From: a virus
Taxonomy: Duplodnaviria > Heunggongvirae > Uroviricota > Caudoviricetes
Strand: one strand, 5' to 3'
DNA length: 46,878 nt
Virus record (IMG/VR): IMGVR_UViG_2529292735_000017
Part shown: piece by piece, positions 1-46,197 of the stretch
Position numbering within the stretch: the first letter of the stretch is position 1
Layout: every line of letters starts with the position of its first letter
Notes under the pieces: model-generated
Database searches by the model: none
Told to the model about the DNA's origin: nothing
The model's input: the letters and a program-made list of their open reading frames with translations, nothing else
Program-made: the position numbers and the translations under genes

Positions 1-1
1 A

Positions 2-1297
2 TTAATTTTTCATTGCTTCGTTATGGGGCATGGTTGGGGCAAACTCGCTTAACTGTGTATTTAACAAAGCTACCTGTGCATTATTGTTTTCAGACATCCA
101 TTTTCCGTATACCTGAAATACCATTTGCGCATCTGCATGGCCCATCTGGTTTGCTATAAATGCCGGGTTAGCACCAGCTGTCAGCGACCAGCAGGCATAA
201 GTATGTCTCGACTGATATGATTTTCGATGGCGGAGTCCGGCACGTTTTATCGCTGCGTCCCACATCTGCCTTATTGAGTCAACGGTAAAATGGTCACCAT
301 AATTTTTTACTCTCGCTGACACTTCAGGTTGAAAAACAAAGGTGCATTTATGTTTTTCTGTTCTGCCATACTCTCTGAGGTGAACATCAATGATATGCTC
401 TTTGCTCAGTCTCGTTAATGTCATCTGACTCCGGAGAGCGTCGATTGCTGGCTTAATAAGATGAATGACCCGATTGGTTCCCGCCTGTGTTTTTGGTACC
501 GTGAAACGGTCTTTTGCTAAATTTCTCCTGATCATCATTGTTCCATTTTTCAGATCTATGTCCTCCCATCCAAGTGCACACAGCTCACCAGGGCGAACGC
601 CAGTATAAACAGAAACACACCATAAATTTTTGGCTTGCTGATTTCTGCACGCATCGATAAGACGGATGAATTCCTCCCGCGAAAGAGGATCCGGAATGGT
701 TCTTGATTCCTTTAATGGCGAGATCCCCTTAAACGGGTTATCTGCCAGGTAACCGTTATCAACACCAAACTGGAACACGGCGTTAAGATTTGTCATGTAA
801 TTATTTACAGTTACAGCCGATCTCCCTGGTTGTGTAACAATATAGTTACTTTTGGGGATCTGGTATCCAGTCAGTAGCTCTTTACGAACCTCCAGTAATT
901 TTTCTTTATTAATCGATGAGGCAAGATTTTTTTCACCGATTATGCTCAGGATATTTTTGATGACGGCACGGTATGTGTTGAGTGATGTTTTTGCGACTTC
1001 AGTTTCTTTCAGTGCCAGAAATTTTTCAGCCAGTTCTTTTATGGTTAAATCTTGTCGGGCCTCACCAAATTTTTCCAGATTGCGTGAGGAGGGAAACTGT
1101 TTTGCATAGTCGAAAACACCAGTTTTTATTGCGTAACAAACAGAGGCGCGTAGCTCACCTGCAACGCGCCTGTTTTTTGCTGTGTCAGGAACCCCCAGGT
1201 TTTCCCTGACTCTTACGCCTTTATAAACAAACCAGATACGTAATTTCCCTCCATGGTTTTCCACGCCTGTCGGATATTTCATTTCAACTTCTCTCAT
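2..1297 (-). CDS. int: Tyrosine-type site-specific integrase (lambda Int family)
   Basis: 431-aa ORF; integrase-like N-terminus and C-terminal catalytic region (…SRHTYACWSL…QMGHADAQMVFQVYGKW) with R/H/Y pattern; terminal position in prophage. Confidence 0.9.
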   Translation of the reverse strand: MREVEMKYPTGVENHGGKLRIWFVYKGVRVRENLGVPDTAKNRRVAGELRASVCYAIKTGVFDYAKQFPSSRNLEKFGEARQDLTIKELAEKFLALKETEVAKTSLNTYRAVIKNILSIIGEKNLASSINKEKLLEVRKELLTGYQIPKSNYIVTQPGRSAVTVNNYMTNLNAVFQFGVDNGYLADNPFKGISPLKESRTIPDPLSREEFIRLIDACRNQQAKNLWCVSVYTGVRPGELCALGWEDIDLKNGTMMIRRNLAKDRFTVPKTQAGTNRVIHLIKPAIDALRSQMTLTRLSKEHIIDVHLREYGRTEKHKCTFVFQPEVSARVKNYGDHFTVDSIRQMWDAAIKRAGLRHRKSYQSRHTYACWSLTAGANPAFIANQMGHADAQMVFQVYGKWMSENNNAQVALLNTQLSEFAPTMPHNEAMKN

Positions 1298-1640: not shown

Positions 1641-4112
1641 TTAAGAATCAGCCTGACTCGGGATCAGTTTTTGCCAGATAGCTGAAACGTATTTTGCCTG
1701 GTAACGGGCGTCATCAAGTGCATTATGGCGCTCACCTTCGAATGGAATAGCCGTTCTGGCATCGAAGTCTATGGCTTTCCCCAGCTCAACGATTGTGCGT
1801 ACATCGCGATCGTTGTAGTAACGCCACGGGCAGGGGATCCCCTGCCGTTCGTATGAACGGCGCAAAATCGTGTTGTCGAAGTTGGCTCCATTTCCCCAGA
1901 CATGAACAAAAAATTCACCGGAGTTTTCGTCGATAAATTCCCGCAATTGTAACAGTGCATCATCTAACGGGATTTCATCGGTCATAATGGCAGATTGCGC
2001 TTCGCGTGATTGTTTAAGCCACCATTTAATGGTGTCCCGATCAATGACTCCGCCAGCAGTTTCCAGATCGATAGTCTTACTAAATTCCGGTCCCATATCT
2101 CCGGTTTGCGGATCGAAAAATATTGCACCTATTGAGATAATCGGGGCATCGGGATTTTTTCCCATGGTTTCAAGGTCGATCATCAGATGAATCCCCGCTC
2201 TGCTGGTGGATGTGAGATTATGATGACCGTTCACCTTAATTAAGGGATCTGACGCCTCGCCAGTTTCACTATCGCTGGCATGATGCTGATTGCTGCCAGT
2301 GTTCTCCTTGTGCTGATGCGCAGAGCCTTCCATTTCCTCCAGATCATTTTTCTGAACTTCAGGCTGATTCTCTCCATCGAATATTTCCTGGTATGTTGCG
2401 TCACCCATCACCGCACCACAATCAGGGCAGTTGCCGCCACCGCTCTGACCGCAGGCGGTGCAGATCTTTTCCGGTTCCTGTTGCACTACTGGTTCAGGTT
2501 GTTTCGTTTCTGGCTCGTTTTGTTGCGTATTTGGGCTGTTTTGTTCCGCTTTCTGGTCGTTCTGTTCCGTTTCTTGCTGGTTCTGGTTCACAGAATCGCG
2601 GGTCTGGATCCCCTTAATCCATTTCGGATCATTCGGGTCGCTAATCCCTTCAACAAATTCACCACGTGATACTGCAAGCAGTTCATCGGCGTCAGGCTGG
2701 CTGATATTGGCTGCCTGCATAATTTTGTTTACTTCGTCAGCGGTAACTTTTACTGACCCTGGTTGTGCGGTCGTGTCAGATGCACCAGTATTTTGTTGTG
2801 AACCTGAGTATGTACCGTTTTTGCGGGCGAAATATTCTTCTTTCGTGATTTCAGTAGCCCCAGCAGACAGCGCCTTATCCAGACCAGAAAGTTTATTTGC
2901 GCGACCGTATTTTTCGCCATCCTTGTCGGTGAAGAGGAAGTAGAACGGCCCCTCACGTTCTACAGATGGTTCGACTTCCACTTTGCATTCGGTTTTTTCG
3001 TTGTCTGGAATTGCCGTTTCCACTGCATCAGTTTCTGGTACTGGCGACGAGAGAGTATCAGTTGCGCTCTGATTTGTTCCTTCATCTTCAAACACGCCCT
3101 TTGTAGTCAGGTATTCAGTAATGTATTTGTTCAGTGCCACAGGGTCTTTGTGAATGTCGATCGGACGTTCACGGACAAGGCCAAAAATAGTCTGGCGGTC
3201 GTAGCGAAGGGCATCAGGCTGTTTGCGCATTGATGCCGAGATACGCTTCCAGTCTTCGCGGTCGTTGTCGATAACTTCATTTTTTGCCCAGCGATGGATG
3301 CTGCCGTCAATGTTTCCGGCATCCACATCACCAGGCCAGAGAGCGTAGGCCAGTTCGTCATCCAGTGTTTTCCATGTCTGCTTGTATTCGCGATGAATGG
3401 CAGCAATGACCGGGTTGATTTTTCCTGTTGAATTTTCAGTGTGCTGTTGATTGGCTCTGGCGCGGGCGAGATCAACAACAGACGTGTATTTTCCGGCTTC
3501 CTTGCGTTCACCTTCGCGACGTTTTTTCCAGATGCGCATCTCTGCCTGAATTTCGGGCCATTTGGCACCAGGCTTACATTTATGCTTAACCCACCCGATG
3601 GCATGCAGCTTAAGCTCCGGATACATAGCGTTAACTTCTGGCATTTTCATCAACGCTTCAACGATATGGCCGTCGAATGTTGCCATGTCTTCCTGCAACA
3701 ATTCCTGTGCGCTAATCACCATATCAACAGTGATGTTTTCACATGTGTCGAACTTAACCATGACAGCGTTCTGTACTTCAGGGGCTAGGTTGTCAAAAGT
3801 GACGTTCATCGGATCGGATTCAGTCTCGACCGGGACAAAGGAAGCAGACGCCTCATCCCAGCGGTTTTCCTGCATATATTCAGCATCCCAGGAATCGAGG
3901 GCAGGGCGGGGTATACCGGGTTTATCCTCGCAAACAAGAAATTTATAAGCGCAGTCCTGAGCAGCCGGATAATGTTCCAGGAATTGCCAGTGAAATTTTG
4001 CGCGGGCGCGACGTTCATCACCGGCTTCAATGGCAGTGGCTACAGCGACGGCACCTTCTTCCTTTATTGCCTGTTCGTCCGGAATGGCGGCGCAAATAAA
4101 GACTTTACTCAT
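1641..4112 (-). CDS. Large exonuclease (exodeoxyribonuclease VIII-like) with C-terminal DnaQ-like 3'-5' exonuclease domain
   Basis: 823-aa ORF; C-terminal DEDD-type exonuclease pattern (…IDLETMG…HVWGNGANFD…HNALDDARY…); internal low-complexity Q/E/P-rich segment and CxxC…CxxC cluster. Confidence 0.7.
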   Translation of the reverse strand: MSKVFICAAIPDEQAIKEEGAVAVATAIEAGDERRARAKFHWQFLEHYPAAQDCAYKFLVCEDKPGIPRPALDSWDAEYMQENRWDEASASFVPVETESDPMNVTFDNLAPEVQNAVMVKFDTCENITVDMVISAQELLQEDMATFDGHIVEALMKMPEVNAMYPELKLHAIGWVKHKCKPGAKWPEIQAEMRIWKKRREGERKEAGKYTSVVDLARARANQQHTENSTGKINPVIAAIHREYKQTWKTLDDELAYALWPGDVDAGNIDGSIHRWAKNEVIDNDREDWKRISASMRKQPDALRYDRQTIFGLVRERPIDIHKDPVALNKYITEYLTTKGVFEDEGTNQSATDTLSSPVPETDAVETAIPDNEKTECKVEVEPSVEREGPFYFLFTDKDGEKYGRANKLSGLDKALSAGATEITKEEYFARKNGTYSGSQQNTGASDTTAQPGSVKVTADEVNKIMQAANISQPDADELLAVSRGEFVEGISDPNDPKWIKGIQTRDSVNQNQQETEQNDQKAEQNSPNTQQNEPETKQPEPVVQQEPEKICTACGQSGGGNCPDCGAVMGDATYQEIFDGENQPEVQKNDLEEMEGSAHQHKENTGSNQHHASDSETGEASDPLIKVNGHHNLTSTSRAGIHLMIDLETMGKNPDAPIISIGAIFFDPQTGDMGPEFSKTIDLETAGGVIDRDTIKWWLKQSREAQSAIMTDEIPLDDALLQLREFIDENSGEFFVHVWGNGANFDNTILRRSYERQGIPCPWRYYNDRDVRTIVELGKAIDFDARTAIPFEGERHNALDDARYQAKYVSAIWQKLIPSQADS

Positions 4113-4204
4113 TTTGTTTTACCTCATTACAGATTTAAGGGTGAACAAATCCCTGCCATTGCTGGCATATAAGAATGAAATCGGATGTTTATTACGGAAC
4201 TGTT

Positions 4205-4396
4205 TTAAAGACCTGCCGGGATTTCGTTATTATCCTGGTGAATAACTTTATCGACCGGGTAACAGTTACCGGGAATTTTCTGTTCGGTTGCTGCAGTCAC
4301 ACACTCCTGCATTGTCCTGTGAACACTGACTGCAATATCAACTGGCTCTCCGGAAACAAGAAAAACTGTCAGAACAAGTGCAAATGCTGTATTCAT
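4205..4396 (-). CDS. ydfD: YdfD-like small protein (dicB operon)
   Basis: Internal Met gives 63-aa product MNTAFALVLTVFLVSGEPVDIAVSVHRTMQEC… matching my recollection of Qin YdfD; overlaps dicB stop. Confidence 0.7.
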   Translation of the reverse strand: MNTAFALVLTVFLVSGEPVDIAVSVHRTMQECVTAATEQKIPGNCYPVDKVIHQDNNEIPAGL

Positions 4397-4581
4397 TGCC
4401 AGCATCCTTTTTGTATCGGACGTAAACGGGCCAACATTGAAAGAATGCATATTTTATTTAATAGCTTCCGTTCGTGTTTTCTCTTGTTAATGGCATCTTC
4501 AGTAAATACAGGGTTACTGATAGTGACACCAATTTCAAAACAACCTTCAGACGTATTAACGTTTGGTAATAACGTTTCCAT
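4393..4581 (-). CDS. dicB: Cell division inhibitor DicB
   Basis: 62-aa product METLLPNVNTSEGCFEIGVTISNPVFTEDAINKRK… closely matches remembered K-12 DicB; correct spacing downstream of dicF. Confidence 0.8.
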   Translation of the reverse strand: METLLPNVNTSEGCFEIGVTISNPVFTEDAINKRKHERKLLNKICILSMLARLRPIQKGCWQ

Positions 4582-4755
4582 TATCGCGTCCTCAACAATG
4601 AATTTTGTGATGCGGTGCCTGGTGCCTCCAGGTGACGTTAACCAGTTAACAATTAACGCCGGATACAGAGAATCCACCCATAACACTGTTTTTGGTTTTA
4701 ACTGTTCCGCGTGCGCTCAGCCGCATTCACCGCATCACAAAATTCACTTTAAAAA

Positions 4756-4808
4756 GGGCGGCAGAGCAGTCACGGAGTAAAACTGATACCGCCAAACGTC
4801 ACCAGAAA
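4756..4808 (-). ncRNA. dicF: DicF small RNA (ftsZ-targeting)
   Basis: Minus-strand sequence TTTCTGGTGACGTTTGGCGGTATCAGTTTTACTCCGTGACTGCTCTGCCGCCC followed by a U-run matches my recollection of the 53-nt DicF; lies in the spacer upstream of dicB as in Qin. Confidence 0.75.
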
Positions 4809-5252
4809 ATTGATAACAGAGGGCGTTGCAGCGGGGTTGTCACTTAAGCGTATGGTCAACCTGACAACTCGGTGTCCTCAACGGGGAAGGAATAACCCCG
4901 CCATACTTACCGCCGCGCCATTTCGCGGGTTGCCACAACCGGAAGCGCACGGTCGAATTAAATTTAACGACACCGTACAGTGAGACGAACTTCGCCGTGC
5001 GCTTTCGTGTTGTATGCCTGCTTTTAACCACGTCAGGCGAGGTGGTATCCTTCTTATCCCGAATAACCAAGAAGGAAATCTATATGACTAAAGAAGAATT
5101 TATCTCTTATATTTTTGATAAAACGGTTGAAATGTATGCCGCTACTTACGGGTCCTGTAATCCTCTGAATAAACCAGAGGGGAAAGATGATTTCGACAAA
5201 ATTTACCGCTTCTTGGAGGACCGCTATATCAAAAGGTTAGAGGACGCAGGGA

Positions 5253-5630
5253 TCAAATCCCCAGTGAAGTCACCATTGTCCTGAGAACTTGCAGGACGTC
5301 ATGATCGTAACTTCCATCCAAACCGCGACGGCAAATTGCTTCTCGTATTACCGGAAGCAGTTCGCTGGAAATCTCGGTGCATATTTCACCTGATAATACG
5401 CCTGGCTCAAGTGAGAATATTGGTGAACTTACGGTCTTGGTCTCGACAGTTTCAGAGTCAGTGCCAACATTATAAAGCTCAACGAAAGCGGTCTTGATTT
5501 TCCGGGCCAGATCTTTTGCTGGCTCGCTTGCAATATCTTTCCCGATTTCTCGCAGCACAGAATGCAATGTATGAGCTGCTGTTTTCTGTACATCAGACGG
5601 TAAATCTTTAAATTCCATCGTCAGCCTCAT
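5253..5630 (-). CDS. YdfB/YdfC-like protein (dicB operon)
   Basis: 125-aa ORF at the position and combined length of ydfB+ydfC in Qin; true start may be the Met at 5618. Confidence 0.5.
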   Translation of the reverse strand: MRLTMEFKDLPSDVQKTAAHTLHSVLREIGKDIASEPAKDLARKIKTAFVELYNVGTDSETVETKTVSSPIFSLEPGVLSGEICTEISSELLPVIREAICRRGLDGSYDHDVLQVLRTMVTSLGI

Positions 5631-5782
5631 CAGTCAGTGTTTCTGGCTAACCAGCAACGCGCGCCAGATTCGGTTTTAAACGTTTTGCTTTTGGTATATG
5701 TCATCGCGGTGAACGTACCGTCCTGGTTGGGGAACACGCCACATACCAGAGATTCGCTGTTGCCAAGATCGATAGTATCCAT
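5630..5782 (-). CDS. ydfA: YdfA-like small protein
   Basis: Internal Met gives 50-aa MDTIDLGNSESLVCGVFPNQDGTFTAMTYTKSKTFKTESGARCWLARNTD, matching remembered YdfA; the longer ORF-track start is rejected. Confidence 0.7.
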   Translation of the reverse strand: MDTIDLGNSESLVCGVFPNQDGTFTAMTYTKSKTFKTESGARCWLARNTD

Positions 5783-5897
5783 GCTGACCTCATTTCCCCT
5801 TAACGCCGGGGTAGCGGAACTGTTTGCTGAGAACACCGTGCGGTGTCTTGATGGAAGTAATTTAGTTTTCTCATTATTTTTCGTCAAGGTTTTTTGA

Positions 5898-5917
5898 TGA
5901 GAAAACTCAAGTATTGG
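5898..5917. promoter_or_regulatory. Putative repressor operator copy in dicB-operon promoter region
   Basis: TGAGAAAACTCAAGTATTGG shares a 13-mer (TGAGAAAACTCAA) plus TATTGG with the site at 6433-6452; lies between dicA stop and ydfA start. Confidence 0.4.
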
Positions 5918-5974
5918 CGCAAGATAAAGCCAATACATTGAAATGTAAGGCTTTAAAATTTTGTGAAGGGATGA

Positions 5975-6382
5975 TTATTGATGCTTGTTGCGTTTGCGAG
6001 CCTCTAATAGCTCGGTGAACAGGCGATTAAAATTCTCAACGCGGGCGCGGAGTTCGCTGAGTTGTGCTTGTTGCTCTGATTTAGGAAGTGCGCGATACAA
6101 ACGCAGCATCTCTAACTCATCTTCCGATAAGTCTAAGGCACTATCGAGTGAAACAGGGGGAGCTGGTGTTTTGTCCTCGTCGCCAAACAGTATCCAGGTT
6201 GGTGAACATTGCAATACCTCGGCGAGGCGATGCAAATTTTGCCCGCGCGGGGCTGTATGGTCACTTTCCCATAATGAAATTGATGAGCCAGATACGCCAG
6301 CAGCTTTGCTTAAACCGTTTTGACTTAAGCCTACCTGCTTACGTCTTTCTCTAATGCGTTGACCTAAAGTTTTCTCGTTCAT
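5975..6382 (-). CDS. dicA: HTH XRE-family prophage repressor DicA (CI analogue)
   Basis: 135 aa from Met at 6382; …GQRIRERRKQVGLSQ…LQCSPTWILFGDEDK…SEQQAQLSELRARVENFNRLFTELLEARKR closely resembles remembered DicA. Confidence 0.85.
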   Translation of the reverse strand: MNEKTLGQRIRERRKQVGLSQNGLSKAAGVSGSSISLWESDHTAPRGQNLHRLAEVLQCSPTWILFGDEDKTPAPPVSLDSALDLSEDELEMLRLYRALPKSEQQAQLSELRARVENFNRLFTELLEARKRNKHQ

Positions 6383-6399
6383 ATTTAGATATCTTAATA

Positions 6400-6459
6400 A
6401 CCCTTGACTTGAGATTCCTTGAGTGATTAGCATTGAGAAAACTCAATATTGGAGGTGCG
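6400..6459. promoter_or_regulatory. Divergent dicA/dicC promoter-operator region
   Basis: 77-bp intergenic region with three TTGAG repeats and inverted repeat ATTGAG-aaaa-CTCAAT (6432-6447); GGAGG RBS at 6451-6455. Confidence 0.5.
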
Positions 6460-6687
6460 ATGTTTAAATCAGACGTAATTAATTTTTACGGTACGAAAGC
6501 CAAAGTAGCGAAAGCTGCTGGCGTTGACCCATCTGCTGTTTCTCAATGGCAAGAGCTGGTTCCTGAAGGTCGCGCGATGCGTCTACAGGAGGCATCTGGC
6601 GGCGAGCTTCTGTATGATCCCAAGGTTTATGACGAATATCGTAAGACGAAGCGGGCGGGGCGGTTGAACAATGAAAATCACTCCTGA
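6460..6687 (+). CDS. dicC: Cro-like regulator (DicC-like)
   Basis: 75 aa from ATG at 6460 with GGAGG RBS; small basic protein divergent from the repressor; …LVPEGRAMRLQEASGGELLYDPKVYDEYRK. Confidence 0.7.
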   Translation: MFKSDVINFYGTKAKVAKAAGVDPSAVSQWQELVPEGRAMRLQEASGGELLYDPKVYDEYRKTKRAGRLNNENHS

Positions 6688-9014: not shown

Positions 9015-10364
9015 TTATTCCGTTTTACATATCATAGTAGTCGATTGGAGAATATAGTTTCTGGGAATGTACTCTTCAAAGTGTTCGTCCTTTTTAAATA
9101 CATGAACTACATTTGGGAATAATTGATAGTCAACAGGGTGTATAGCGTTTGGATTATGGTACATGTACATGGCTGTACACCATGGTTCTTGATAGTTAGG
9201 GTCACTTACATCGGCTGAAAATGGATGTGGGGCTGCATCCTGATCAGTTTTAACACCACTGACGTACACTTTGAATCCACTCGCCTCTACACCTGCAAGA
9301 ATTCCCATCCGGTTAAACTTAGGTATGGTTGCTTGAGTAGTGAGTAAAACGGCAGAAACATAATTATTTTGTTCTGAGCCAAAAAAGTTCGACTTGATAC
9401 TTCTATTTTCATCTGTATGTCTTTCAATAGAAATGCCTGACTCAATATCAATCCCGTACAAATAGCTATGCAAGGCTTCGCTTGAGAAGGCCATGGACAT
9501 TCTTTTTGAATAATCCTGCATTGCTATGACAAATGGTTTGTTCTTTGTATGGTTGAGTTCCCAGTAATGAACTTTCTCTGGCTCAGGGCAATGCCGGACT
9601 TTTTTTAATAAACTTCTTGCAAACTTAAAAGGCATGACATTTAGAACATGTTTTCTTAATTCATCCATCTGTTCATCGTTAATGACTTTTCTTTCAAGAG
9701 GGGCTTCTGCTTCAGCAATGCTTACAGCCTCTACAGCAATTTCCACTCCAAATTTAGATAGCAGAAAATCTGGTTGATTGTATTCTCTATTCATTTCAAA
9801 GTCGAGTTCATAAAATACAGCGTTCAAATATAATTCAAATAACCTTGAATTAAATGCATCACTTTGAAAATCCCTTATAAATATTCCATCAGGATCTTTG
9901 AACCAGTATGCAAGTTCCTCAAGAACAATATATGCAGGGAAATGAAGAGGGTCTTCGAGGAGCATTTTTATATAAACATTCCTTTTTTTCTCTGGGACTT
10001 TACTCAAGAATAATGAAAAAGGTTTGGATGATTCATCGCCTTGCATGAATGTACCATTTTGGTGCTGCGCCAGCATCTTTGGTATGTCATCGTTCAAATT
10101 ATTAAGCAAGACATCCATTGAATCAAATGAAGCCAAGACGTTTATTGCTCTGAATTTTTTATCTAAATCCCGACCTAAGACTATTGCGTTAAAATCTTTA
10201 TCAATATTGCATATGATTATTGTGGATAACAATGTTATCCCATTCCCCTCATATTTAAACCAGCGTATCTCCTCAGAAAATGTCTTAAGGTAAGGTGAGC
10301 GACCGTAAAAATAAATATCAAATTGTTCTTTGCTGATCTCACTGAAGTGTAATCCTGCGTTCAT
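9015..10364 (-). CDS. Uncharacterised 449-aa protein (orphan moron; candidate defence/accessory gene)
   Basis: Long uninterrupted ORF on the strand opposite all flanking phage genes; visibly AT-rich; no Walker A, HExxH or other motif I can assign. Confidence 0.8.
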   Translation of the reverse strand: MNAGLHFSEISKEQFDIYFYGRSPYLKTFSEEIRWFKYEGNGITLLSTIIICNIDKDFNAIVLGRDLDKKFRAINVLASFDSMDVLLNNLNDDIPKMLAQHQNGTFMQGDESSKPFSLFLSKVPEKKRNVYIKMLLEDPLHFPAYIVLEELAYWFKDPDGIFIRDFQSDAFNSRLFELYLNAVFYELDFEMNREYNQPDFLLSKFGVEIAVEAVSIAEAEAPLERKVINDEQMDELRKHVLNVMPFKFARSLLKKVRHCPEPEKVHYWELNHTKNKPFVIAMQDYSKRMSMAFSSEALHSYLYGIDIESGISIERHTDENRSIKSNFFGSEQNNYVSAVLLTTQATIPKFNRMGILAGVEASGFKVYVSGVKTDQDAAPHPFSADVSDPNYQEPWCTAMYMYHNPNAIHPVDYQLFPNVVHVFKKDEHFEEYIPRNYILQSTTMICKTE

Positions 10365-10514: not shown

Positions 10515-11107
10515 CATCTGACCACACTGTTAACTGGAGTAACGACTATGGCAGGAATACAGCATAACCAAACTCACCCCAAACTTACATAGCGCTTTCT
10601 GGCCGTGAGCATAACAAGGTCCACTCCTCGCTCAAAGCGGACTAGAAGGTTAGCTTGTGTCGGACTTTGCGTATTAAATGACTAGTGGTTGAGCCCCATT
10701 TCCACAGAAAAAATCAGAGAAACTATACCCAATAGTTGTATTGAATCACTGACGAGACAGCCTCATATTCATCAGGACTGGTGTACGTCCAATACAGGAG
10801 GTTGTGGTGCTGGTTCTCAAATGTGCGCTGGCTATTACGGCTGTAATGGCGATTTATTGTCTTGCTATTGTTCTTATGGATCGCCTTTCTGACTGATTTC
10901 ACATTGGCGAGGTAACGGTAGTTAAGTAGAATGGCTGCGGGTGCTTGAGGCTATCTGCCTCGGGCATGAACACCAACGGCAGATAGAGAAAAGCCCCAGT
11001 TAACATTACGCGTCCTGCAAGACGCTTAACATTAATCTGAGGCCAATTTCATGCTAGACACATGTAGGTTAGCCTCTTACGTGCCGAAAGGCAAGGAGAA
11101 GCAGGCT

Positions 11108-11263
11108 ATGAAGCAGCAAAAGGCGATGTTAATCGCCCTGATCGTCATCTGTTTAACCGTCATAGTGACGGCACTGGTAACGAGGAAAGACCTCTGCGAG
11201 GTACGAATCCGAACCGGGCAGACGGAGGTCGCTGTCTTCACAGCTTACGAACCTGAGGAGTAA
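11108..11263 (+). CDS. hokD: Hok/Gef-family type I toxin (HokD/RelF-like)
   Basis: 51 aa MKQQKAMLIALIVICLTVIVTALVTRKDLCEVRIRTGQTEVAVFTAYEPEE: a single transmembrane helix plus conserved Cys/Tyr tail typical of Hok; AGGAGAAG RBS. Confidence 0.85.
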   Translation: MKQQKAMLIALIVICLTVIVTALVTRKDLCEVRIRTGQTEVAVFTAYEPEE

Positions 11264-11479: not shown

Positions 11480-11731
11480 ATGATGAACATCGAAGAACTG
11501 CGTAAAATTTTTTGTGAAGATGGCCTCTATGCGGTGTGCGTTGAAAATGGAAATCTTGTTAGTCATTACCGCATTATGTGTTTGCGAAAGAATGGGGCTG
11601 CGTTAATTAATTTTGTGGATGGTCGAGTGACAGACGGATTTATCTTGCGCGAAGGTGAGTTTGTCACTTCATTACAGGCACTGAAAGAGATCGGAATAAA
11701 AGCAGGCTTTTCAGCTTTTGCAGAAGAATAA
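11480..11731 (+). CDS. rem: Rem-like hypothetical protein
   Basis: 83-aa ORF; size and position next to hok and ydfU match Qin rem; identity from memory. Confidence 0.55.
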   Translation: MMNIEELRKIFCEDGLYAVCVENGNLVSHYRIMCLRKNGAALINFVDGRVTDGFILREGEFVTSLQALKEIGIKAGFSAFAEE

Positions 11732-14436: not shown

Positions 14437-14476
14437 ATTGCGGAATTAATTACGGACCGTTATTATTCTGCTCCCG

Positions 14477-14552
14477 GCCCTTTAGCTCAGTGGTGAGAGC
14501 GAGCGACTCATAATCGCCAGGTCGCTGGTTCAAATCCAGCAAGGGCCACCAT
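14477..14552 (+). tRNA. tRNA, anticodon CAT (ileX/ileZ-like tRNA-Ile2; Met not excluded by anticodon alone)
   Basis: 76 nt with 7-bp acceptor stem GGCCCTT/AAGGGCC, anticodon loop cTCATAa, GGTTCAAATCC T-arm, 3' CCA; closely resembles remembered E. coli ileX. Confidence 0.85.
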
Positions 14553-14651: not shown

Positions 14652-14728
14652 GCGTTGTTAGCTCAGCCGGACAGAGCAATTGCCTTCTAAGCAATCGGTC
14701 ACTGGTTCGAATCCAGTACAGCGCGCCA
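14652..14728 (+). tRNA. tRNA-Arg (anticodon TCT)
   Basis: 77 nt; acceptor stem GCGTTGT/ACAGCGC, anticodon loop CTTCTAA, GGTTCGAATCC T-arm, 3' CCA. Confidence 0.85.
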
Positions 14729-15192: not shown

Positions 15193-15725
15193 ATACATAT
15201 CTGGATTATCACCTGTTACGGTAAAAAGTGATTGCTTACTGTTTTTGTGAATGGCATTGCAGCAGCCGGATAATGTCAGTGCTGGCTGACGGTGTGCTGG
15301 TGGCGGGTGTGGTGGTTGTTGCTTTCCCGTTGCTGAAAAAGAAAACGCCAGACTGTTAGCCGGGTATCAGTTAGCGGGAGAAATTTTTAAATACTTCACA
15401 ATTCAGGCGGTTGACTGTTCTCTGGTTTGCGGGGAGTTTGTTAAAAGAAACTGGCATGGTGAATCCCCCTGTGCGGAGGGGCAATCAGCGAGTAGGTATA
15501 TGGGATAATCGCGGATTCAGGTGCTGGTACTGAATTCACCGGGAGGCACCCGGCACCATGCACTTCAATAGATTCTCTCCACATTATGGATATTCTTTCA
15601 GAATATCCCACGCAGACTTTGTGTAAATGTTAACAAATGTGCGTTTTATTTGATCTGATTCGCTGTTTGAGCGTCCAAAACAACGGTATATATAATCCTT
15701 TACTATATGACATATGTGAGGAAAA

Positions 15726-16700: not shown

Positions 16701-17007
16701 CTCTTCAATTACTATATCTCATTCATAGCAAACTGACAGATTTGATGATGTTCTATATACGAAACCTGTGATGTCAAGTCTGAGCTAATACAAATAAACA
16801 TAATATCAGAGAAATACATTTTATTAGCTCGCTACGGCGAGCTTTTTATATTGCATCGTCTCCAGCATATATATCAATTAAGGCTCTGATTGATGTGTCT
16901 GGAAGCCTACACATAATAGACTGGCCCCCTGAATCTCCAGACAACCAATATCACTTAAATAAGTGATAGTCTTAATACTAGTTTTTAGACTAGTCATTGG
17001 AGAGCAG

Positions 17008-17337
17008 ATGATTGATGTCTTAGGACCGGAGAAACGCAGACGGCGTACTACACAGGAAAAGATCGCTATTGTTCAGCAGAGTTTTGAACCGGGAATGACG
17101 GTCTCCCTTGTTGCCCGGCAACACGGTGTGGCAGCCAGCCAGTTATTTCTCTGGCGCAAGCAATACCAGGAGGGAAGTCTTACTGCTGTGGCCGCAGGAG
17201 AGCAGGTCGTTCCTGCCTCTGAACTTGCTGCTGCCATGAAGCAGATTAAGAACTCCAGCGCCTGCTCGGCAAAAAAACGATGGAAAATGAACTCCTTAAA
17301 GAAGCCGTTGAATACGGGCGTGCAAAAAAGTGGATAG
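17008..17337 (+). CDS. insC: IS2 transposase OrfA (InsC), C-terminus apparently frame-altered
   Basis: [41 protein letters not shown]… matches InsC up to …AAMKQIK, then diverges from my recollection, consistent with a 1-nt deletion. Confidence 0.7.
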
Positions 17338-18235
17338 CGCACGCGCCCTTATTGCCCGGGGATGGGGAGTAAGCTTAGTCAGCCGTTGTCTCCGGGTGTC
17401 GCGTGCGCAGTTGCACGTAATTCTCAGACGAACCGATGACTGGAAAGATGGTCGCCGCAGCCGTCACTCAGATGATACGGATGTGCTTCTCCGTATACAC
17501 CATGTTATCGGAGAGCTGCCCACGTATGGTTATCGTCGGGTATGGGCGCTGCTTCGCAGACAGGCCGAACTTGATGGTATGCCTGCGATCAATGCCAAAC
17601 GTGTTTACCGGATCATGCGCCAGAATGCGCTGTTGCTTGAGCGAAAAACCGCTGTACCGCCATCGAAACGGGCACATACTGGCAAAGTGGCCGTGAAAGA
17701 AAGCAATCAACGATGGTGCTCTGACGGGTTCGAGTTCCGCTGTGATAACGGAGAAAAACTGCGAGTCACGTTCGCGCTGGACTGCTGTGACCGTGAGGCA
17801 CTGCACTGGGCAGTCACTACGGGCGGCTTCGACAGTGAAACAGTACAGGACGTAATGCTGGGAGCGGTGGAACGCCGCTTCGGCAACGAGCTTCCGGCGT
17901 CTCCAGTAGAGTGGCTGACGGATAATGGTTCATGCTACCGGGCTAATGAAACACGGCAGTTTGCCCGGATGTTGGGGCTTGAACCGAAGAACACGGCGGT
18001 GCGGAGTCCGGAGAGTAACGGCATAGCAGAGAGCTTCGTGAAAACGATAAAGCGTGACTACATCAGTATCATGCCTAAACCAGACGGGTTAACGGCAGCA
18101 AAGAACCTTGCAGAGGCGTTCGAGCATTATAACGAATGGCATCCGCATAGTGCACTGGGTTATCGCTCGCCACGGGAATATCTGCGGCAGCAGGCCAGTA
18201 ATGGGTTAAGTGATAACAGGTGTCTGGAAATATAG
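17330..18235 (+). CDS. insD: IS2 transposase OrfB (InsD; DDE catalytic domain)
   Basis: 301-aa [26 protein letters not shown]… typical IS3-family OrfB. Confidence 0.85.
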
Positions 18236-18286
18236 GGGCAAATCCACATAATAACTATGCCATCCGTTCCGTGCGGAGGTGAGGCT

Positions 18287-18502
18287 ATGAAATCCATGGA
18301 CAAAATTTCAACAGGCATTGCCTACGGCACCTCCGCAGGCAGTGCTGGCTACTGGTTTTTACAGCTGCTCGATAAAGTCACGCCCTCACAGTGGGCAGCA
18401 ATAGGTGTGCTGGGTAGCCTGGTATTTGGCCTGCTGACGTACCTGACAAATCTTTATTTCAAGATTAAAGAAGACAGGCGTAAGGCTGCGAGAGGAGAGT
18501 AA
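18287..18502 (+). CDS. S: Class II holin (phage 21 S-like pinholin) with dual start
   Basis: [71 protein letters not shown]; Met1-Lys-Ser-Met4 dual-start motif; two transmembrane segments. Confidence 0.85.
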
Positions 18503-18570
18503 TCCAATGACTCAATACTATGAACTGGTTGTGAAAGGAGGTAAGCGTCAACGGAGCACCGTATTGACGC

Positions 18571-18930
18571 TTATTTATTGGTGAGTACTACGTTCCATGG
18601 CAGGAGTTCGTCAACACGGTTGGAGGGCCATTCCGGCAGTACGCTCAGAATATGGCGCAGATACGCTTCCGGATCGATACCGTTCAGTCGGCAGGTGCCG
18701 ATCAGCCCGTACAGCAGTGCTCCACGCTCGCCGCCGTGATCGCTACCGAAGAACACGTAATTTTTCTTTCCGAGACAGACTGCACGAAGCGCTCTTTCCG
18801 CTGTGTTATTGTCCACCTCCGCCAGACCGTCATCACTGTAATAACAGAGGGCGTCCCACTGATTCAGTACATAGCTGAACGCTTCGCCCAGTCTGGATTT
18901 TTTCGACAGCGTGCCATTCTTCTCCACCAT
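18571..18930 (-). pseudogene. IS66 TnpC C-terminal fragment
   Basis: …DNNTAERALRAVCLGKKNYVFFGSDHGGERGALLYGLIGTCRLNGIDPEAYLRHIL… conserved IS66 transposase C-terminus; N-terminal three quarters absent. Confidence 0.75.
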
Positions 18931-18947
18931 CCATTCATGCAGCGACG

Positions 18948-19193
18948 TCAGTAACGCTTTGCTTCGCTGCTGCCTGGCTGCAAGACGCTCTGACTCTGGT
19001 AATCTCCGTATTTCATTCTCGATGGCGTACAGTTCACTTCTCCCCGTCGGCCACGGAAGATAAACAGGTGACCGGAGAAGGGGTTATCATCCAGCACATG
19101 CTGTATCTGCTCCCCCAGACCGTTGAAGGATTTACGCATATCAGTAACGCCGGCAACGAGCCAGATACGGGTACCTGATGGGAGTGAAATCAT
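18948..19193 (-). pseudogene. IS66 orf2 (TnpB) truncated
   Basis: MISLPSGTRIWLVAGVTDMRKSFNGLGEQIQHVLDDNPFSGHLFIFRGRRG then unrelated sequence, marking the deletion junction. Confidence 0.7.
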
Positions 19194-19627
19194 CGTCCCC
19201 TCCCGGTCAGCTCACGGATCAACACCGTGAGCAGCTCTGGTGAAGGATTTTCCAGCATCATTTTACCGTAATGGAATTCCACATGGCAGGAAGCTGCACA
19301 AGCAACTGATAATGCCTCCGGAGCAGGAGCATCTGTAGCACAGCGCGGGGGGTCGATAAGTTCCACTGGAACCAGAGTCGGAGAGGCCGGAAAAGATTGT
19401 GATACTGTAGGGCCTACAATAGTTGGAGGCATTCTACGAGAAATACGTCCTTCTCTTTGCCAGAGGCGTAGCCATTTAAAAATCAGGTTGTTATCAACGC
19501 CATGTTCCCGGGCCAGTTGTGCAACATTGGCATTTGGTTTCGAAGCCAGTTCAACCATATGAAGTTTAAATTCATTAGAAAATATCCGGCGGGTTCCGGA
19601 GCGCCAGTCTGTAGGTTTATCCATCAA
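19190..19627 (-). CDS. IS66-family orf1 (TnpA accessory protein)
   Basis: 145-aa ORF with HTH-like N-terminus, first gene of the IS66 operon. Confidence 0.75.
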   Translation of the reverse strand: MMDKPTDWRSGTRRIFSNEFKLHMVELASKPNANVAQLAREHGVDNNLIFKWLRLWQREGRISRRMPPTIVGPTVSQSFPASPTLVPVELIDPPRCATDAPAPEALSVACAASCHVEFHYGKMMLENPSPELLTVLIRELTGRGR

Positions 19628-19991
19628 TAGAACTCCGTCTAATTTAGAAGGAGCTCTAATTTAGTCTGCAAGGAGCAGGTGTTACAGACGGCATTGGCTT
19701 TACGCTTACGAAAGGAGTCCGTAATTTTGAGAATAAAGTTACGGTAACTGTAGCCTTACAGGACAAAGAACGCTTTGACGGTGAAATTTTTGGCCTGGAT
19801 GTCGCCATGGACCGTGTTGAAGGAGCTGCGCTGGAGTTTTATGAGGCAGCAGCCAGAATGAGCGTCCGGCAAGTCTTCCTGGAAGTAGCAGAAAAATTGT
19901 CAGAAAAAGTTGAGTCTTATCTGCAGCATCAGTACTCCTTTAAGATTGAAAATCCTGCCAATAAGCACGAGCGTCCTCATCATAAATATCT

Positions 19992-21019
<1,028 letters not shown>

Positions 21020-21382
21020 ATTAATATTAAATCGGATTATTTTTAGCGCTGAATGTGAAATTTAAATAAAAAGGACTCTTCCATGAGTCAAAATCCTTGA
21101 AATCTTAAGGGTAAGATAAAAGGTCATTAGACAGAATGACACGTTTTATTAATAAATAAAGCTATTGTTTCATTCGTGTGTTTTTCTTTACAAAAGTAAT
21201 CCTTGCTATGGTTGGTTAATCATGCGTTAATGGTGTTCTGGTTTGTTACAAAATTATCTGAAGCAGTCATTGTTATAATTTTATTATTTGTACCTCTTGA
21301 GATTTCCTTGTTGGTTTTTCTCTCTGATATTTTTTTTCGGACCATTCTGCCCAAGGGCTAACTTCTTCAAAAGGTAATAATG

Positions 21383-21595
21383 ATGTCTAACAAAATGACT
21401 GGTTTAGTGAAATGGTTTAACCCTGAAAAAGGTTTTGGTTTCATCACGCCGAAAGATGGTAGCAAAGATGTGTTTGTGCATTTCTCAGCTATTCAGAGCA
21501 ACGATTTCAAAACGTTAACTGAGAATCAGGAAGTCGAATTTGGTATTGAGAACGGACCTAAAGGCCCTGCAGCTGTTCATGTAGTGGCACTTTGA
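21383..21595 (+). CDS. Cold-shock protein (CspA family)
   Basis: 70 aa [38 protein letters not shown]… with RNP1/RNP2 motifs; long AT-rich 5' leader. Confidence 0.85.
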
Positions 21596-21800
21596 GGTAG
21601 AAAATATTACAAACCATATTCACTTTAGATGCCCGTGTTGCCATGGTTCTCAGTATAGAACATCATCTTTTGATGTTTCTGACAGAAATCCTTTCGGGGC
21701 AAAATGTATCTTTTGTAAATCAATGATGATTACATTTGATAATATTTCACAATACTTAAATGTTAGCCATCTGTCGTTAGATTTAAGAAAGTGAAAATGA

Positions 21801-22442: not shown

Positions 22443-22737
22443 CATGTTTATAGTATTAGCATCAATTTCTCATCAGATGCTATTCAACAATACAAATTAC
22501 CCATAAACCTCGTTTTTACGGGGTTTTGTTATATTTAAACATTACTGAATAGATATAAATCTCGATTGTCGATGGTATTGGTTGTGTGACAATACCTAGT
22601 CTTTCCGGTATGCCTGAAGAGAATACAAACGACAGATTATGTAAGGGAAACGCGCTGAAACTTTCACTCTTTCATGCTGAGTGATTTGACGTTATATTTT
22701 TAGCCGCAAGTGAAGAGCAAACGAATGGAGCGACAAA

Positions 22738-22944
22738 ATGCATAAAGATCAATACACTGATGCCCCCTCCCAGGAGCAGGTTCGTGTAAAAACTATGCTT
22801 AATAGCACCATTTCGATGGGTTACCCGGATGTTGTAATTGCATGTATAGAACATCAAGTATCTCTGGAAGCATTCAGGGCAATTGAGGCCGCGTTAGTAA
22901 AGCACGATAAGAATACGAAGGATTATTCCCTGGTGGTTGACTGA
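22738..22944 (+). CDS. Hypothetical small protein
   Basis: 68-aa ORF in AT-rich cargo region; no motif recognised. Confidence 0.4.
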
Positions 22945-23299
22945 TCACCATAACTGCTAACCATTCTGACCATTTCACAAGTGACAGAGTCAATATCGTA
23001 TTCTGTCACTGTAAGGCTAATACAGTACTGCAATTCAACTACAGCAATGCCTCGTATTTAGGTGAATTTACAATATCGTCCAGTTCGGATGCCGGCTGCA
23101 TTTCTGAAGATAAGGCATTTCGGTTCGCGTATTTTCCCCTCATGCTCGTCAGTCCTGCGCGTAGTAAGAAACAGGACACTCACACTAATTTGTGTGGGCA
23201 TGCTGTGATGTCCTTCTGAATTATCCCCATGCCATTATGTAACGCTCTGTTTCAGATGCTCGTCACGGTTGTCAGGCTGTCGGGTCCTCCCAGTGGGGG

Positions 23300-23340
23300 T
23301 CCCTGCCACGGGGCGGGAGCGTCGCGGAAAAAGGCTAGTT
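23300..23340. other. Putative cos site (cosN-like)
   Basis: ACGGGGCGGGAGCGTCGCGGA resembles lambda cosN (ACGGGGCGGCGACCTCGCGGG); 186 bp upstream of the small terminase start, as in lambda; followed by AT-rich region with palindrome CTGTAAT-n-ATTACAG. Confidence 0.45.
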
Positions 23341-23496
23341 TTTGAAATTTCATCCGTCATCACCACTACTGTAATAGATTGATATTACAGTATTTTTATT
23401 TTTGTGGTGTCGATTTTGATTGTTTTTTGTTCATCACTAACACCGTTTGCCTAAAGTCGTTCGCAAGATGCATGTTTAAAACATTCTGGAGCGGGT

Positions 23497-23991
23497 ATGG
23501 ATCGAGAGTTAAAAAATCTGACGCTGAATATCAGTCAATTGGCGGCACTGTCAGGTGTACATCGCCAGACTGCTGCGGCAAGGCTGCAAAATCTACCCGT
23601 TGCAGGGGGGCATGAAAGCAACCTCAAGCTTTATCGGGTGGTTGATATTGTGTCGGCATTTCTGGCATTACCACCGCCGGTTGCAGAAGGCGAAATGGAC
23701 GCACATGAGCGCAAAGCCTGGTATCAGTCTGAACGTGAGCGTCTTAAGTTCGAACAGGAAACGGCACAACTCATTCCGGCCAGTGATGTCAGACGGGAGT
23801 TTGCCATCTGGGCAAAAGCGGTCGTGCAGGTGCTGGAGACATTACCGGATATTCTTGAACGTGACTGCGGTCTGCAGCCTGCCGCTGTGAGCCGTGTTCA
23901 GTCCATTATTGATGATCTGCGCGATCAGGTAGCCCTGCGGGTGACTGAAGCAGGTGCGGATGATGAGGAGGAATTACAGCAGGAGGAGTAA
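23497..23991 (+). CDS. Terminase small subunit (Nu1-like)
   Basis: 164 aa with N-terminal winged-HTH-like segment (…LNISQLAALSGVHRQTAAARLQ…) and acidic C-terminus; directly upstream of large terminase. Confidence 0.75.
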   Translation: MDRELKNLTLNISQLAALSGVHRQTAAARLQNLPVAGGHESNLKLYRVVDIVSAFLALPPPVAEGEMDAHERKAWYQSERERLKFEQETAQLIPASDVRREFAIWAKAVVQVLETLPDILERDCGLQPAAVSRVQSIIDDLRDQVALRVTEAGADDEEELQQEE

Positions 23992-45587: not shown

Positions 45588-46171
45588 TGGCATTCAGAAT
45601 GAGTGAACAACCACGGACCATAAAAATTTATAATCTGCTGTCCGGAACTAATGAATTTATTGGTGAAGGTGATGCATATATTCCGCCTCATACAGGTCTG
45701 CCAGCAAACAGTACCGATATTGCACCGCCAGATATTCCGGCTGGTTTCGTGGCTGTTTTCAACAGTGATGAGTCATCGTGGCATCTCGTTGAAGATCATC
45801 GGGGTAAAACGGTTTATGACGTGGCTTCCGGCGACGCGTTATTTATTTCTGAACTCGGCTCATTACCGGAAAATGTCACCTGGTTATCCCCGGAAGGGGA
45901 GTTTCAGAAGTGGAACGGCACAGCCTGGGTGAAGGATACGGAAGCAGAAAAACTGTTCCGGATCCGGGAGGCGGAAGAAACAAAAAACAGCCTGATGCAG
46001 GTAGCCAGTGAGCATATAGCGCCGCTTCAGGATGCTGTAGATCTGGAAATCGCAACGGAGGAAGAAACCTCATTGCTGGAAGCCTGGAAAAAATATCGGG
46101 TGTTGCTGAACCGTGTTGATACATCAACTGCACCTGATATTGAGTGGCCTACGAACCCTGTCAGGGAGTAA
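45587..46171 (+). CDS. tfa: Tail fibre assembly protein (Tfa)
   Basis: 194 aa; ATGA overlap with stf stop; typical position. Confidence 0.85.
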
Positions 46172-46197
46172 TCATTGGGATTATGCCGCAGCACGTC

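Follow-up and report, generated by a model that had tools for sequence, protein, structure and literature searches.

An mEp460-like lambdoid prophage carries the dicBF operon with DicF RNA, predicted division inhibitors and an exchanged gene cassette

Results

Genes of the operon and the genes downstream

The window analyzed here is a 46,878-nucleotide stretch of viral DNA (IMG/VR record IMGVR_UViG_2529292735_000017). Its minus strand carries ydfA, dicB, and ydfD, all on one strand and in the order known from prophage Qin in E. coli K-12. The first gene of the operon, ydfA (positions 5630 to 5782), encodes a 50-residue DUF1391 protein (PF07151, E = 4.3e-27) that is 88% identical to K-12 YdfA. 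The dicB gene (4393 to 4581) encodes a predicted MinC-targeting cell division inhibitor of 62 residues, which matched PF05358 over the whole profile (1 to 62 of 62; E = 3.6e-37; 126.3 bits, cutoff of 27) as well as NF049927 (131.9 bits, cutoff of 100). It is 87% identical to K-12 DicB, from which a MinC-dependent inhibition of Z-ring formation would be expected. The start of ydfD (4205 to 4396) overlaps the dicB stop by 4 nt; its 63-residue DUF1482 product (PF07358, E = 3.7e-25) is 94% identical to K-12 YdfD, a lysis protein (PMC8835842).

The exonuclease, excisionase, and integrase genes lie downstream of the operon on the same strand. In the gap from ydfD to the exonuclease gene, a consensus scan placed a hairpin resembling a terminator (4154 to 4167, minus strand), which is a pattern match only, with one such match in the region against a shuffle mean of 2.3. 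In K-12, no transcript beyond ydfA-ydfD was detected (PMC10448788). The 823-residue exonuclease (1641 to 4112) matched PF16473 at its C terminus (E = 6.8e-67) and gave a partial RecE-like match below the cutoff. What K-12 has as the ydfE/exonuclease remnant is here full length, and it continues the early-left gene array; the K-12 record annotates the ydfE-type gene as an incomplete exonuclease remnant, the N-terminal part of which falls within a 95%-identical block common to the window. Domain matches in the int-xis region (Phage_integrase, Arm-DNA-bind_2, and DUF1233) identified the excisionase (1317 to 1568) and the integrase (2 to 1297). Over 1161 nt, int and the intQ remnant of K-12 agree at 99% of positions.

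DicF and its precursor

According to the gene map and the Qin alignment, a long untranslated stretch separates dicB from the small ORFs upstream in the DicA-controlled operon, and DicF falls within it. There, the 53-nt DicF sRNA, including its terminator hairpin, occupies positions 4756 to 4808 of the minus strand. The Rfam covariance model RF00039 matched at 4807 to 4756 over its full length (model positions 1 to 52 of 52) with 76.7 bits (gathering score, 48) and E = 2.6e-15. All 53 nt are identical to Qin DicF of K-12, all pairs of the hairpin are standard in the cmscan alignment, and UUUUU (4755 to 4751) follows directly 3' of the hairpin. A GC-rich hairpin ending in a U-run could also be a mere intrinsic terminator within the operon whose resemblance to DicF is incidental, but the model match extends through the 14 unpaired 5' nucleotides and every base is that of the experimentally characterized K-12 RNA. 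Together, the RF00039 match and the K-12 alignment refute that reading and leave it practically no probability. The first-pass annotation had proposed a prophage dicB operon with cell division inhibitors and a DicF-like 53-nt sequence followed by a U-run; this central reading is borne out by the Rfam result and by the significant DicB, YdfA, and YdfD matches given above.

The sequences flanking DicF are also structured. The minimum free energy fold of 4582 to 5020 (minus strand; z = −4.6) has stems where RNase III sites are described in K-12. One of them, a long stem upstream of DicF (4932 to 5017, minus strand), has kept both arms relative to K-12, though the sequence upstream of the arms has been swapped. 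By analogy with the RNase III/RNase E processing scheme of K-12 DicF (PMC10448788), RNase III would be predicted to cleave at this stem, and a K-12-type 190-nt RNase III species would have its 5' end in the 3' arm of the stem, at about 4945. The spacer between dicF and dicB (4597 to 4748, minus strand), nearly identical to that of K-12, has a 21-bp closing stem, seen in the fold and in the arms read from the sequence (4728 to 4748 and 4597 to 4617; 20 of 21 positions complementary), that lies just before the dicB ribosome-binding site. This spacer is a candidate for the 3' RNase III site that would yield the 72-nt DicF species (PMC5069750).

Promoter, operators, and immunity region

A consensus scan located a PL-like promoter equivalent to dicBp (TTGACG, 17 nt, TAAATT) at 5859 to 5887 on the minus strand. 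Promoter patterns matched five times in the region against a shuffle mean of 4.2, and by itself the pattern therefore counts for little; the −35 element aligns with the dicBp region of K-12, to which identity is ∼90 to 100% from the transcript start onward. Two operator-like sites of the TTGAG-N4-CTCAA type (5861 to 5874 and 5897 to 5910), identified by pattern search and by inverted repeat I1, flank or overlap this promoter. The pattern search found three more between the repressor and cro-like genes (6384 to 6446), among them the exact palindrome TTGAGAAAACTCAA at 6433 to 6446, and the consensus scan placed a PR-like promoter at 6404 to 6433. The operator pattern is not enriched across the window (14 matches, 22 expected), and only its local clustering is meaningful, with 5 of the 14 matches in 5861 to 6446.

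The repressor gene (5975 to 6382, minus strand) encodes a 135-residue DicA-type protein with a helix-turn-helix only (NF007257, 239 bits, cutoff of 101; HTH_3, E = 2.1e-15) that is 57% identical to K-12 DicA; searches with Pfam and NCBIfam profiles gave no match to a Peptidase_S24 domain. The divergent gene (6460 to 6687, plus strand) encodes a 75-residue DicC/Cro-type regulator (NF007282, 165 bits, cutoff of 130; P22_Cro, E = 3.2e-16), 70% identical to K-12 DicC. The same element also holds rem (11480 to 11731, plus strand), whose 83-residue product is an antirepressor homologue 96% identical to K-12 Rem, described in PMC10448788 as relieving DicA repression. Because the repressor is only 57% identical to its K-12 counterpart but Rem is 96% identical, we can only assume that the two are paired in this prophage. 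A search upstream of rem for a LexA box, which would point to SOS control, found none between 11264 and 11480.

A two-gene cassette in place of ydfB and ydfC

The first-pass annotation described a complete operon in the order ydfA, ydfB/C, dicF, dicB, ydfD. That order holds for ydfA, dicF, dicB, and ydfD. K-12 YdfB and YdfC gave no tblastn match in the whole window with the threshold relaxed to E ≤ 10, and the interval 5013 to 5630 is unrelated to Qin and cannot be aligned with it. The operon is thus not complete in the Qin sense: an unrelated two-gene cassette has replaced ydfB and ydfC.

On the operon strand, the cassette holds a 121-residue ORF (5253 to 5618, minus strand; phrog_33007, E = 1.2e-82). 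Its N-terminal helical module (residues 1 to 50, beginning MEFKDLP) is common to other dicBF operon variants and also matches four other PHROGs, while its C-terminal module (residues 82 to 120) is common to partners of the second cassette gene elsewhere. The AF2 model of the protein (pLDDT of 58) was too poor for a structure search.

The second gene encodes 66 residues on the opposite strand (5084 to 5284, plus strand; phrog_34441, E = 4.1e-50). It converges on the 121-residue ORF with a 32-nt overlap and has an AAGGA ribosome-binding site 8 nt upstream of its ATG. Orthologues reach down to 52% identity, and a dN/dS of 0.12 to 0.27 marks it as a real gene under purifying selection. The AF2 model is a plain helical hairpin (pLDDT of 78) with no Foldseek match in the PDB at E ≤ 0.001. 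A full HMMER scan of 1.84 billion cluster representatives returned an orphan family of 11 members with no informative relatives, and a scan of genome contigs, carried out to widen the family, gave four loci only, all near-identical or mis-binned. Neither cassette protein matched Pfam or NCBIfam, their PHROGs are all families of unknown function, and profile searches against PDB sequences gave chance-level matches only (E = 4.1 and 0.12).

The 66-residue gene has a consistent setting. In all five lineage contexts examined, it is antisense to an early lytic operon and adjoins the immunity region; in each it also converges on, and overlaps, an ORF of the operon strand, which usually has the same C-terminal module. 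Plus-strand ORFs also occur in the O157 and O16 dicBF variants, but comparison showed that they are not homologues of the 66-residue gene. The element GGTGGTATCCT (5041 to 5051, plus strand), 33 to 43 nt upstream of the start codon, is conserved in all orthologous loci; an extended −10 promoter (TGgTATCCT) and a recombination linker are both possible identities. One O157 locus that lacks an intact plus-strand ORF has it too. The element GGTGGTATCC was rejected as proof of a promoter for the 66-residue gene because the same element is present in the O157 locus that lacks an intact downstream ORF. In the window, the convergent gene lies between ydfA and the DicF precursor, where its transcription could interfere with read-through of the operon.

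Intactness of the prophage

Relative to phage mEp460_ev081, the window contains an IS2 (16923 to 18244) and an IS66 family fragment (18541 to 19709), which bracket the holin gene in the lysis module and are both absent from the free phage. The first-pass annotation called the prophage otherwise intact-looking, with int, xis, and exo; these are present, but the lysis module has taken two insertions, which suggest that this prophage may have lost the ability to go through a full lytic cycle. The locus might then be a decaying, silent remnant, conserved only through recent acquisition and inactive in this strain, and the loss of a 1.76-kb segment adjoining attP would fit such decay as well. Against this, no ORF of the operon is disrupted, neither DicF nor the stems on either side of it have changed, and 4100 to 6500 matches an isolated functional phage at 100.0%. 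The DicF precursor module is moreover retained in 4102 of 5426 complete E. coli genomes (76%), often in several copies, which argues for maintained function, an argument discussed in PMC5069750. We therefore consider inactivity of the operon improbable.

Discussion

The elements identified here, their arrangement, and the conservation of the RNA structures are established by the present analysis. With a probability of roughly 0.9, positions 4205 to 5887 of the minus strand belong to an mEp460-like lambdoid prophage and make up the part of its early-left (PL-type) operon nearest the promoter; K-12 has kept this unit as dicBF in the cryptic prophage Qin. The locus is already known: published work covers the dicBF operon along with what it encodes, how it is regulated, and how widely it is distributed among E. 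coli prophages. What the window adds is the decayed Qin element as it would be when whole, with the same integrase, a full exonuclease, and structural genes. It also presents the interval from ydfA to dicF as a swappable slot whose edge leaves the RNase III stem of the DicF precursor untouched, and it draws attention to a small-protein gene, conserved and antisense, within the operon.

All molecular activities, processing steps, and regulation proposed for this prophage are carried over from work on K-12 and would operate as follows. In the lysogen, the short DicA-type repressor, which has no self-cleavage domain, would hold the operon off by binding the TTGAG-N4-CTCAA operators near its promoter. 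Derepression, probably by Rem encoded 5.7 kb away, would give a polycistronic transcript of ydfA, the 121-residue ORF, the DicF precursor, dicB, and ydfD, and some transcription would probably run on into exo, xis, and int; no N-like antiterminator for passage of the DicF terminator and the post-ydfD hairpin into these three genes was identified. RNase III would cut in the long upstream stem, with RNase E then trimming the product to the 53-nt DicF, whose 3' end would be formed by its own hairpin and U-run; read-through of this terminator would supply dicB and ydfD. DicF with Hfq would pair with ftsZ mRNA and also with xylR, pykA, and manX, as it does in K-12 (PMC10448788, PMC5069750). DicB would send MinC to midcell and would also block ManYZ-dependent DNA entry of lambda-like phages, and YdfD would be a lysis protein as in K-12. 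MinC targeting and ftsZ repression are both predicted from sequence identity to the K-12 molecules. Their joint effect would be an arrest of host division during lytic development, analogous to that of lambda Kil.

The phage resistance connected with this locus invites another reading, in which the operon is mainly a lysogen-protecting defense or exclusion unit, with DicB blocking ManYZ-dependent entry and the antisense 66-residue gene expressed in the lysogen, and is not a means of lytic host takeover. The first-pass annotation credited DicF with a reported inhibition of some phages, which is a misattribution: the published resistance to lambda and 434 depends on DicB and acts via ManYZ, with minimal effect of a dicF deletion (Ragunathan and Vanderpool 2019, PMC6832061). 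This resistance speaks for a defense role, as do spontaneous activity of dicBp in a subpopulation (PMC10448788), a PD-T7-1 defense gene in the same prophage, and the orientation of the 66-residue gene against a repressed operon, as expected of a lysogen-expressed gene. Yet bulk expression of the operon is expected only after induction, because its promoter is of the PL type and repressor controlled; DicB and DicF are toxic when expressed (PMC10448788); and neither cassette protein matched a PADLOC-DB 2.0 defense model at E ≤ 0.1. A mainly defensive role seems unlikely to us, and division arrest by an early-left operon is the reading we prefer.

The 66-residue gene, antisense within the operon, appears to be unstudied so far and to be the sole unexplored item at the locus. 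A speculative idea, to which we give little credence at present, is that it represents an undescribed lysogen-expressed module of lambdoid prophages that acts with the overlapping operon-strand ORF. If so, its product could be an exclusion or toxin-like factor, neutralized once the early operon fires; alternatively, convergent transcription of the gene could add a layer of silencing to the toxic dicF and dicB genes.

Comparison with known systems

A near-identical relative is Escherichia phage mEp460_ev081 (LR597641.1), a functional temperate phage with dicB, dicF, dicAC, and rem (Ragunathan et al. 2023, PMC10448788). Identity is 100.0% over 4100 to 6500 (BLAST, rounded), one residue of the 66-residue protein differs, and the whole window is collinear with the circularly permuted phage genome at 99.7 to 100%, opened at att and not at cos. 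The window differs by the added IS2 and IS66 fragment and by the absence of phage positions 22726 to 24482. The LR597641.1 record has no annotation for DicF, places a spurious plus-strand CDS across it, and overextends dicB to 94 residues; this annotation should be corrected.

Qin of K-12 shares the order of ydfA, dicF, dicB, ydfD, and the exonuclease gene, with DicF identical. A 1,670-nt block at 94.9% identity comprises the truncated exonuclease gene (exo'), ydfD, dicB, dicF, and the precursor stem, and a second common block of 218 nt comprises ydfA and its leader. Repressor and Cro are of the same type in both elements, and Rem (96%) and the integrase (99%, to the intQ remnant) are close. 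In contrast, the immunity proteins have diverged (DicA, 57%; DicC, 70%) and the operators differ; Qin has ydfB and ydfC where the window has the 121-residue ORF and the antisense gene; and the exonuclease, xis, and int genes of the window are full length, with structural and lysis genes present.

Lambdoid prophages of E. coli O157:H7 (CP-933M/O/P), in which multiple dicBF copies occupy different prophages (PMC5069750), have the same frame of repressor, variable genes, dicF, dicB, a DUF1482 protein, and an 823-residue exonuclease. In one O157 example, a protein with the MEFKDLP N-terminal module is convergent with a small opposite-strand ORF, as in the window, but ydfC is retained, DicF has diverged (a 29-nt blastn match only), and the opposite-strand ORF is unrelated to the 66-residue gene.

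The functional parallel is lambda Kil, which PMC3961180 describes as a small PL operon product that blocks FtsZ ring formation during induction. Its position and timing are analogous to those of the dicBF products, whereas a relationship in sequence would not be expected and its route is different: Kil acts through ZipA/FtsZ, DicB through MinC, and DicF through ftsZ mRNA.

The dicB operon and its DicF RNA

The core reading of the first-pass annotation, a dicB operon with DicF, is real, and its essentials were correctly identified, as Rfam and protein-family matches showed. On the minus strand, DicB (62 aa; 4393-4581) matched PF05358 (3.6e-37) and NF049927 (131.9 bits; cutoff, 100), YdfD (63 aa; 4205-4396) matched DUF1482 (3.7e-25), and YdfA (50 aa; 5630-5782) matched DUF1391 (4.3e-27), all significantly and with 87%, 94%, and 88% identity, respectively, to the K-12 proteins. 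The int, xis, and exo genes that had been reported for this prophage were found downstream of the operon on the same strand, as integrase, excisionase, and an 823-aa exonuclease. The operon had also been called complete in the gene order of Qin, the cryptic K-12 prophage (ydfABC-dicF-dicB-ydfDE). This holds for ydfA, dicF, dicB, and ydfD but not for ydfB/ydfC: alignment with Qin fails from ∼5630 to ∼5013, and tblastn with K-12 YdfB and YdfC gave no match in the whole window, even at an E value of ≤10.

Scanned against Rfam at gathering thresholds, the whole window gave a single DicF match (RF00039; 4807..4756, minus strand), which covered model positions 1 to 52 of 52 at 76.7 bits (family threshold, 48; E = 2.6e-15), and all hairpin pairs in the covariance alignment were standard. 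The proposed 53-nt DicF-like sequence at 4756-4808 is this match plus one extra 5' U; it is identical to K-12 Qin DicF at 53 of 53 positions (alignment and blastn) and is directly followed by the expected U-run, UUUUU at 4755-4751 (minus strand).

The RNA from 4582-5020 (minus strand) folded far better than shuffled controls (z = −4.6). The fold contained a long stem upstream of DicF (5017-4932), the DicF terminator hairpin (within 4756-4808), and a 21-bp stem (arms 4728-4748 and 4597-4617) closing the dicF-dicB spacer immediately ahead of the dicB ribosome-binding site, all on the minus strand. In K-12, RNase III generates a 190-nt DicF species and, on the 3' side, a 72-nt species, while RNase E generates the 53-nt form (PMC10448788; PMC5069750). 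The 5' end of a 190-nt species here would fall at ∼4945, within the long stem's 3' arm, and the 21-bp stem starts a few nucleotides past the U-run, where the 3' end of a 72-nt species would fall. Neither arm of the upstream stem is thus reached by the cassette, whose boundary falls just beyond them. The predicted DicF processing unit is intact despite the cassette swap, and we infer that it is cleaved.

The DicF precursor module (4700-5015) was present in 4102 of 5426 complete E. coli genomes, at a median of two places per genome with any match and a maximum of ten; RefSeq E. coli records carried no annotated feature under it. In the record of Escherichia phage mEp460_ev081 (LR597641.1; L001), DicF is likewise unannotated, a spurious 51-aa CDS is called across it on the opposite strand (L001 5593-5748, plus strand; window 4692-4847), and dicB is annotated as 94 aa from an upstream GTG rather than as 62 aa (L001 5294-5578, minus strand; window 4393-4677).

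Regulatory region

Upstream of the operon lie a DicA-type repressor gene (5975-6382, minus strand; NF007257, 239 bits; cutoff, 101) and, divergent from it, a DicC/Cro gene (6460-6687, plus strand; NF007282, 165 bits; cutoff, 130). A consensus scan placed a sigma-70-like promoter, TTGACG-17-TAAATT, at 5887..5859 (minus strand), where the K-12 dicBp region aligns; because the scan gave 5 matches in the region versus a mean of 4.2 in shuffles, this call rests on position and the K-12 alignment. Operator-like TTGAG-N4-CTCAA sites surround this promoter (5861-5874 and 5897-5910). Others (6384-6397, 6409-6422, and 6433-6446, an exact palindrome) are in the intergenic region that separates the repressor gene from the cro-like gene, beside a PR-like promoter (6404-6433) from the consensus scan. 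The pattern is unenriched window-wide, and weight is therefore given only to its local clustering.

An HTH domain was identified in the repressor, and a search for an S24 peptidase domain found none; in this it resembles DicA and the Gifsy repressors, which are under antirepressor control (PMC10448788). A Rem homologue (11480-11731) is 96% identical to K-12 Rem, and a search for a LexA box in front of rem was negative. Just upstream of rem is a hok/sok-type type I toxin-antitoxin locus (10939-11263, plus strand; Rfam sok, 115 bits; mok/hok ORF, 11051-11263), whose Qin counterpart, hokD, has the same placement.

A cassette with an antisense gene replaces ydfB/ydfC

The ydfB/ydfC slot is occupied by two ORFs: one of 121 aa on the operon strand (5253-5618, minus strand) and, convergent with it and overlapping it by 32 nt, one of 66 aa (5084-5284, plus strand) whose ATG has an AAGGA ribosome-binding site 8 nt upstream. 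Each belongs to a PHROG family of unknown function, and Pfam, NCBIfam, and PADLOC searches gave no match for either protein. At ≥80% coverage, the cassette occurred in 392 of the 5426 genomes and is thus a minority form compared with the DicF precursor module (4102).

The 66-aa ORF is judged to be a real gene because its N-terminal motif is invariant in orthologues down to 52% identity and pairwise dN/dS is 0.12 to 0.27; in the more divergent comparisons, changes were concentrated at third codon positions. The family is small (11 representatives in 1.84 billion clusters) and, in the searches made, was found solely in Enterobacterales prophages. All contexts examined share one layout: the gene is antisense to an early operon, beside the immunity region, and convergent and overlapping with an operon-strand ORF. 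Here it follows ydfA; in three other loci (L027, L003, and L033) it comes directly after an S24-type repressor; in the Cedecea loci L004 and L005 it is flanked by cro and a cII-like gene; and in L034 and L035 it stands behind another repressor-like gene. The partner ORF carries the ∼45-aa C-terminal module of the 121-aa protein in the first three of these contexts, whereas the L034 partner is unrelated. This arrangement would fit expression of the 66-aa gene in the lysogen, with the gene off or countered once the early operon fires. An AF2 model of the protein is a helical hairpin, for which a fold search gave no informative match.

An element, GGTGGTATCC, lies 33 to 43 nt upstream of the 66-aa start codon and is kept in all orthologues. 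It could be an extended −10 promoter. Equally possible is a recombination linker for cassette exchange, because the element also occurs in an O157 dicBF locus (L006, ∼3425-3460) with no intact downstream ORF, and 33 nt including it (5020-5052, plus strand) are 100% conserved in ∼800 E. coli genomes where the remainder of the cassette is missing.

Putative small opposite-strand ORFs, unrelated in sequence to the 66-aa gene, were also seen in two other dicBF loci: that of L006 (2541-3159) is convergent and overlapping with a "MEFKDLP" N-module protein, and that of the O16:H6 locus (L008, 3413-4067) is tail-to-tail with its partner across a 79-nt gap.

State of the prophage

The whole window is the mEp460_ev081 genome opened at att, not cos: window 1-23471 aligns with phage 24808-45865 and window 23472-46149 with phage 1-22725, at 99.7 to 100% identity (100.0%, rounded, over window 4100-6500), with one residue different in the 66-aa protein. 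Phage positions 22726-24482 are missing from the window. Beyond a 49-nt att-core-like match to the attP-proximal region of the phage (46186-46234) lies a host-like class I SAM-dependent methyltransferase ORF (minus strand); attR probably lies within 46186-46878, and attL is outside the window, left of int.

The description of the prophage as intact-looking was nearly right, the exception being the lysis module. There, IS2 (16923-18244; IS3-family OrfA/OrfB, 33-nt terminal inverted repeats) directly precedes the P21-type holin gene (18257-18502), and an IS66-family fragment (18541-19709) directly follows it. Because these bracket the holin gene and both are absent from mEp460_ev081, late expression or lysis may be defective in this copy.

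A 449-aa ORF opposite to the replication genes (9015-10364, minus strand) gave a full-length match to the anti-phage defense protein PD-T7-1 (PADLOC PDLC04073, 4e-157) and no Pfam domain; mEp460_ev081 has it too, labeled "hypothetical protein." Further Rfam matches (14476-14548, 14652-14725, 15425-15615, 21225-21641, and 45930-46128, plus strand) represent two tRNA genes, the sRNA STnc100, a cspA-type thermoregulator leader preceding a cold-shock gene, and an IS009 RNA near the tail-fiber genes.

Comparison with Qin and published dicBF loci

Relative to Qin, the window is a mosaic of four segments. One is a shared 1,670-nt block (3346-5011; 94.9% identity) that runs from the exonuclease N terminus through ydfD, dicB, the dicF-dicB spacer, and dicF into the sequence upstream of dicF. 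The leader and ydfA are also conserved (90% over 218 nt; 5639-5856), whereas the cassette segment is unrelated and the immunity region has diverged (DicA, 57%, and DicC, 70% protein identity; different operators). Over 1161 nt (window 1-1161), the integrase gene shares 99% DNA identity with the truncated Qin intQ (L002, 382-1542), which suggests the same integration specificity and fits a view of Qin as a decayed relative of this phage type.

The actions of DicF on ftsZ (PMC5069750), of DicB with MinC and ManYZ (PMC6832061), and of YdfD as a lysis protein (PMC8835842) have been described, as has regulation by DicA, DicC, and Rem together with RNase III/E processing (PMC10448788). The first-pass annotation credited DicF with inhibiting some phages; that resistance is DicB dependent, and dicF deletion had minimal effect (PMC6832061). 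Corrected on this point, on the absent ydfB/ydfC, and on the IS insertions in the lysis module, its functional reading is textbook for a dicBF locus. In 2016, neither DicB nor DicF was found among ∼2000 phage genomes (PMC5069750). In 2023, a functional temperate phage from infant feces, "mEp460_evo81," was described with dicB, dicF, dicAC, and rem (PMC10448788), and it is essentially the sequence of the window; the locus is also present in further recent phage records, of which that of Tritos names DicF. The dicBF finding is thus already known: loci of this kind have been described, and so has a phage that is nearly identical. The residual novelty, a modest one, would be the antisense 66-aa small-protein gene.
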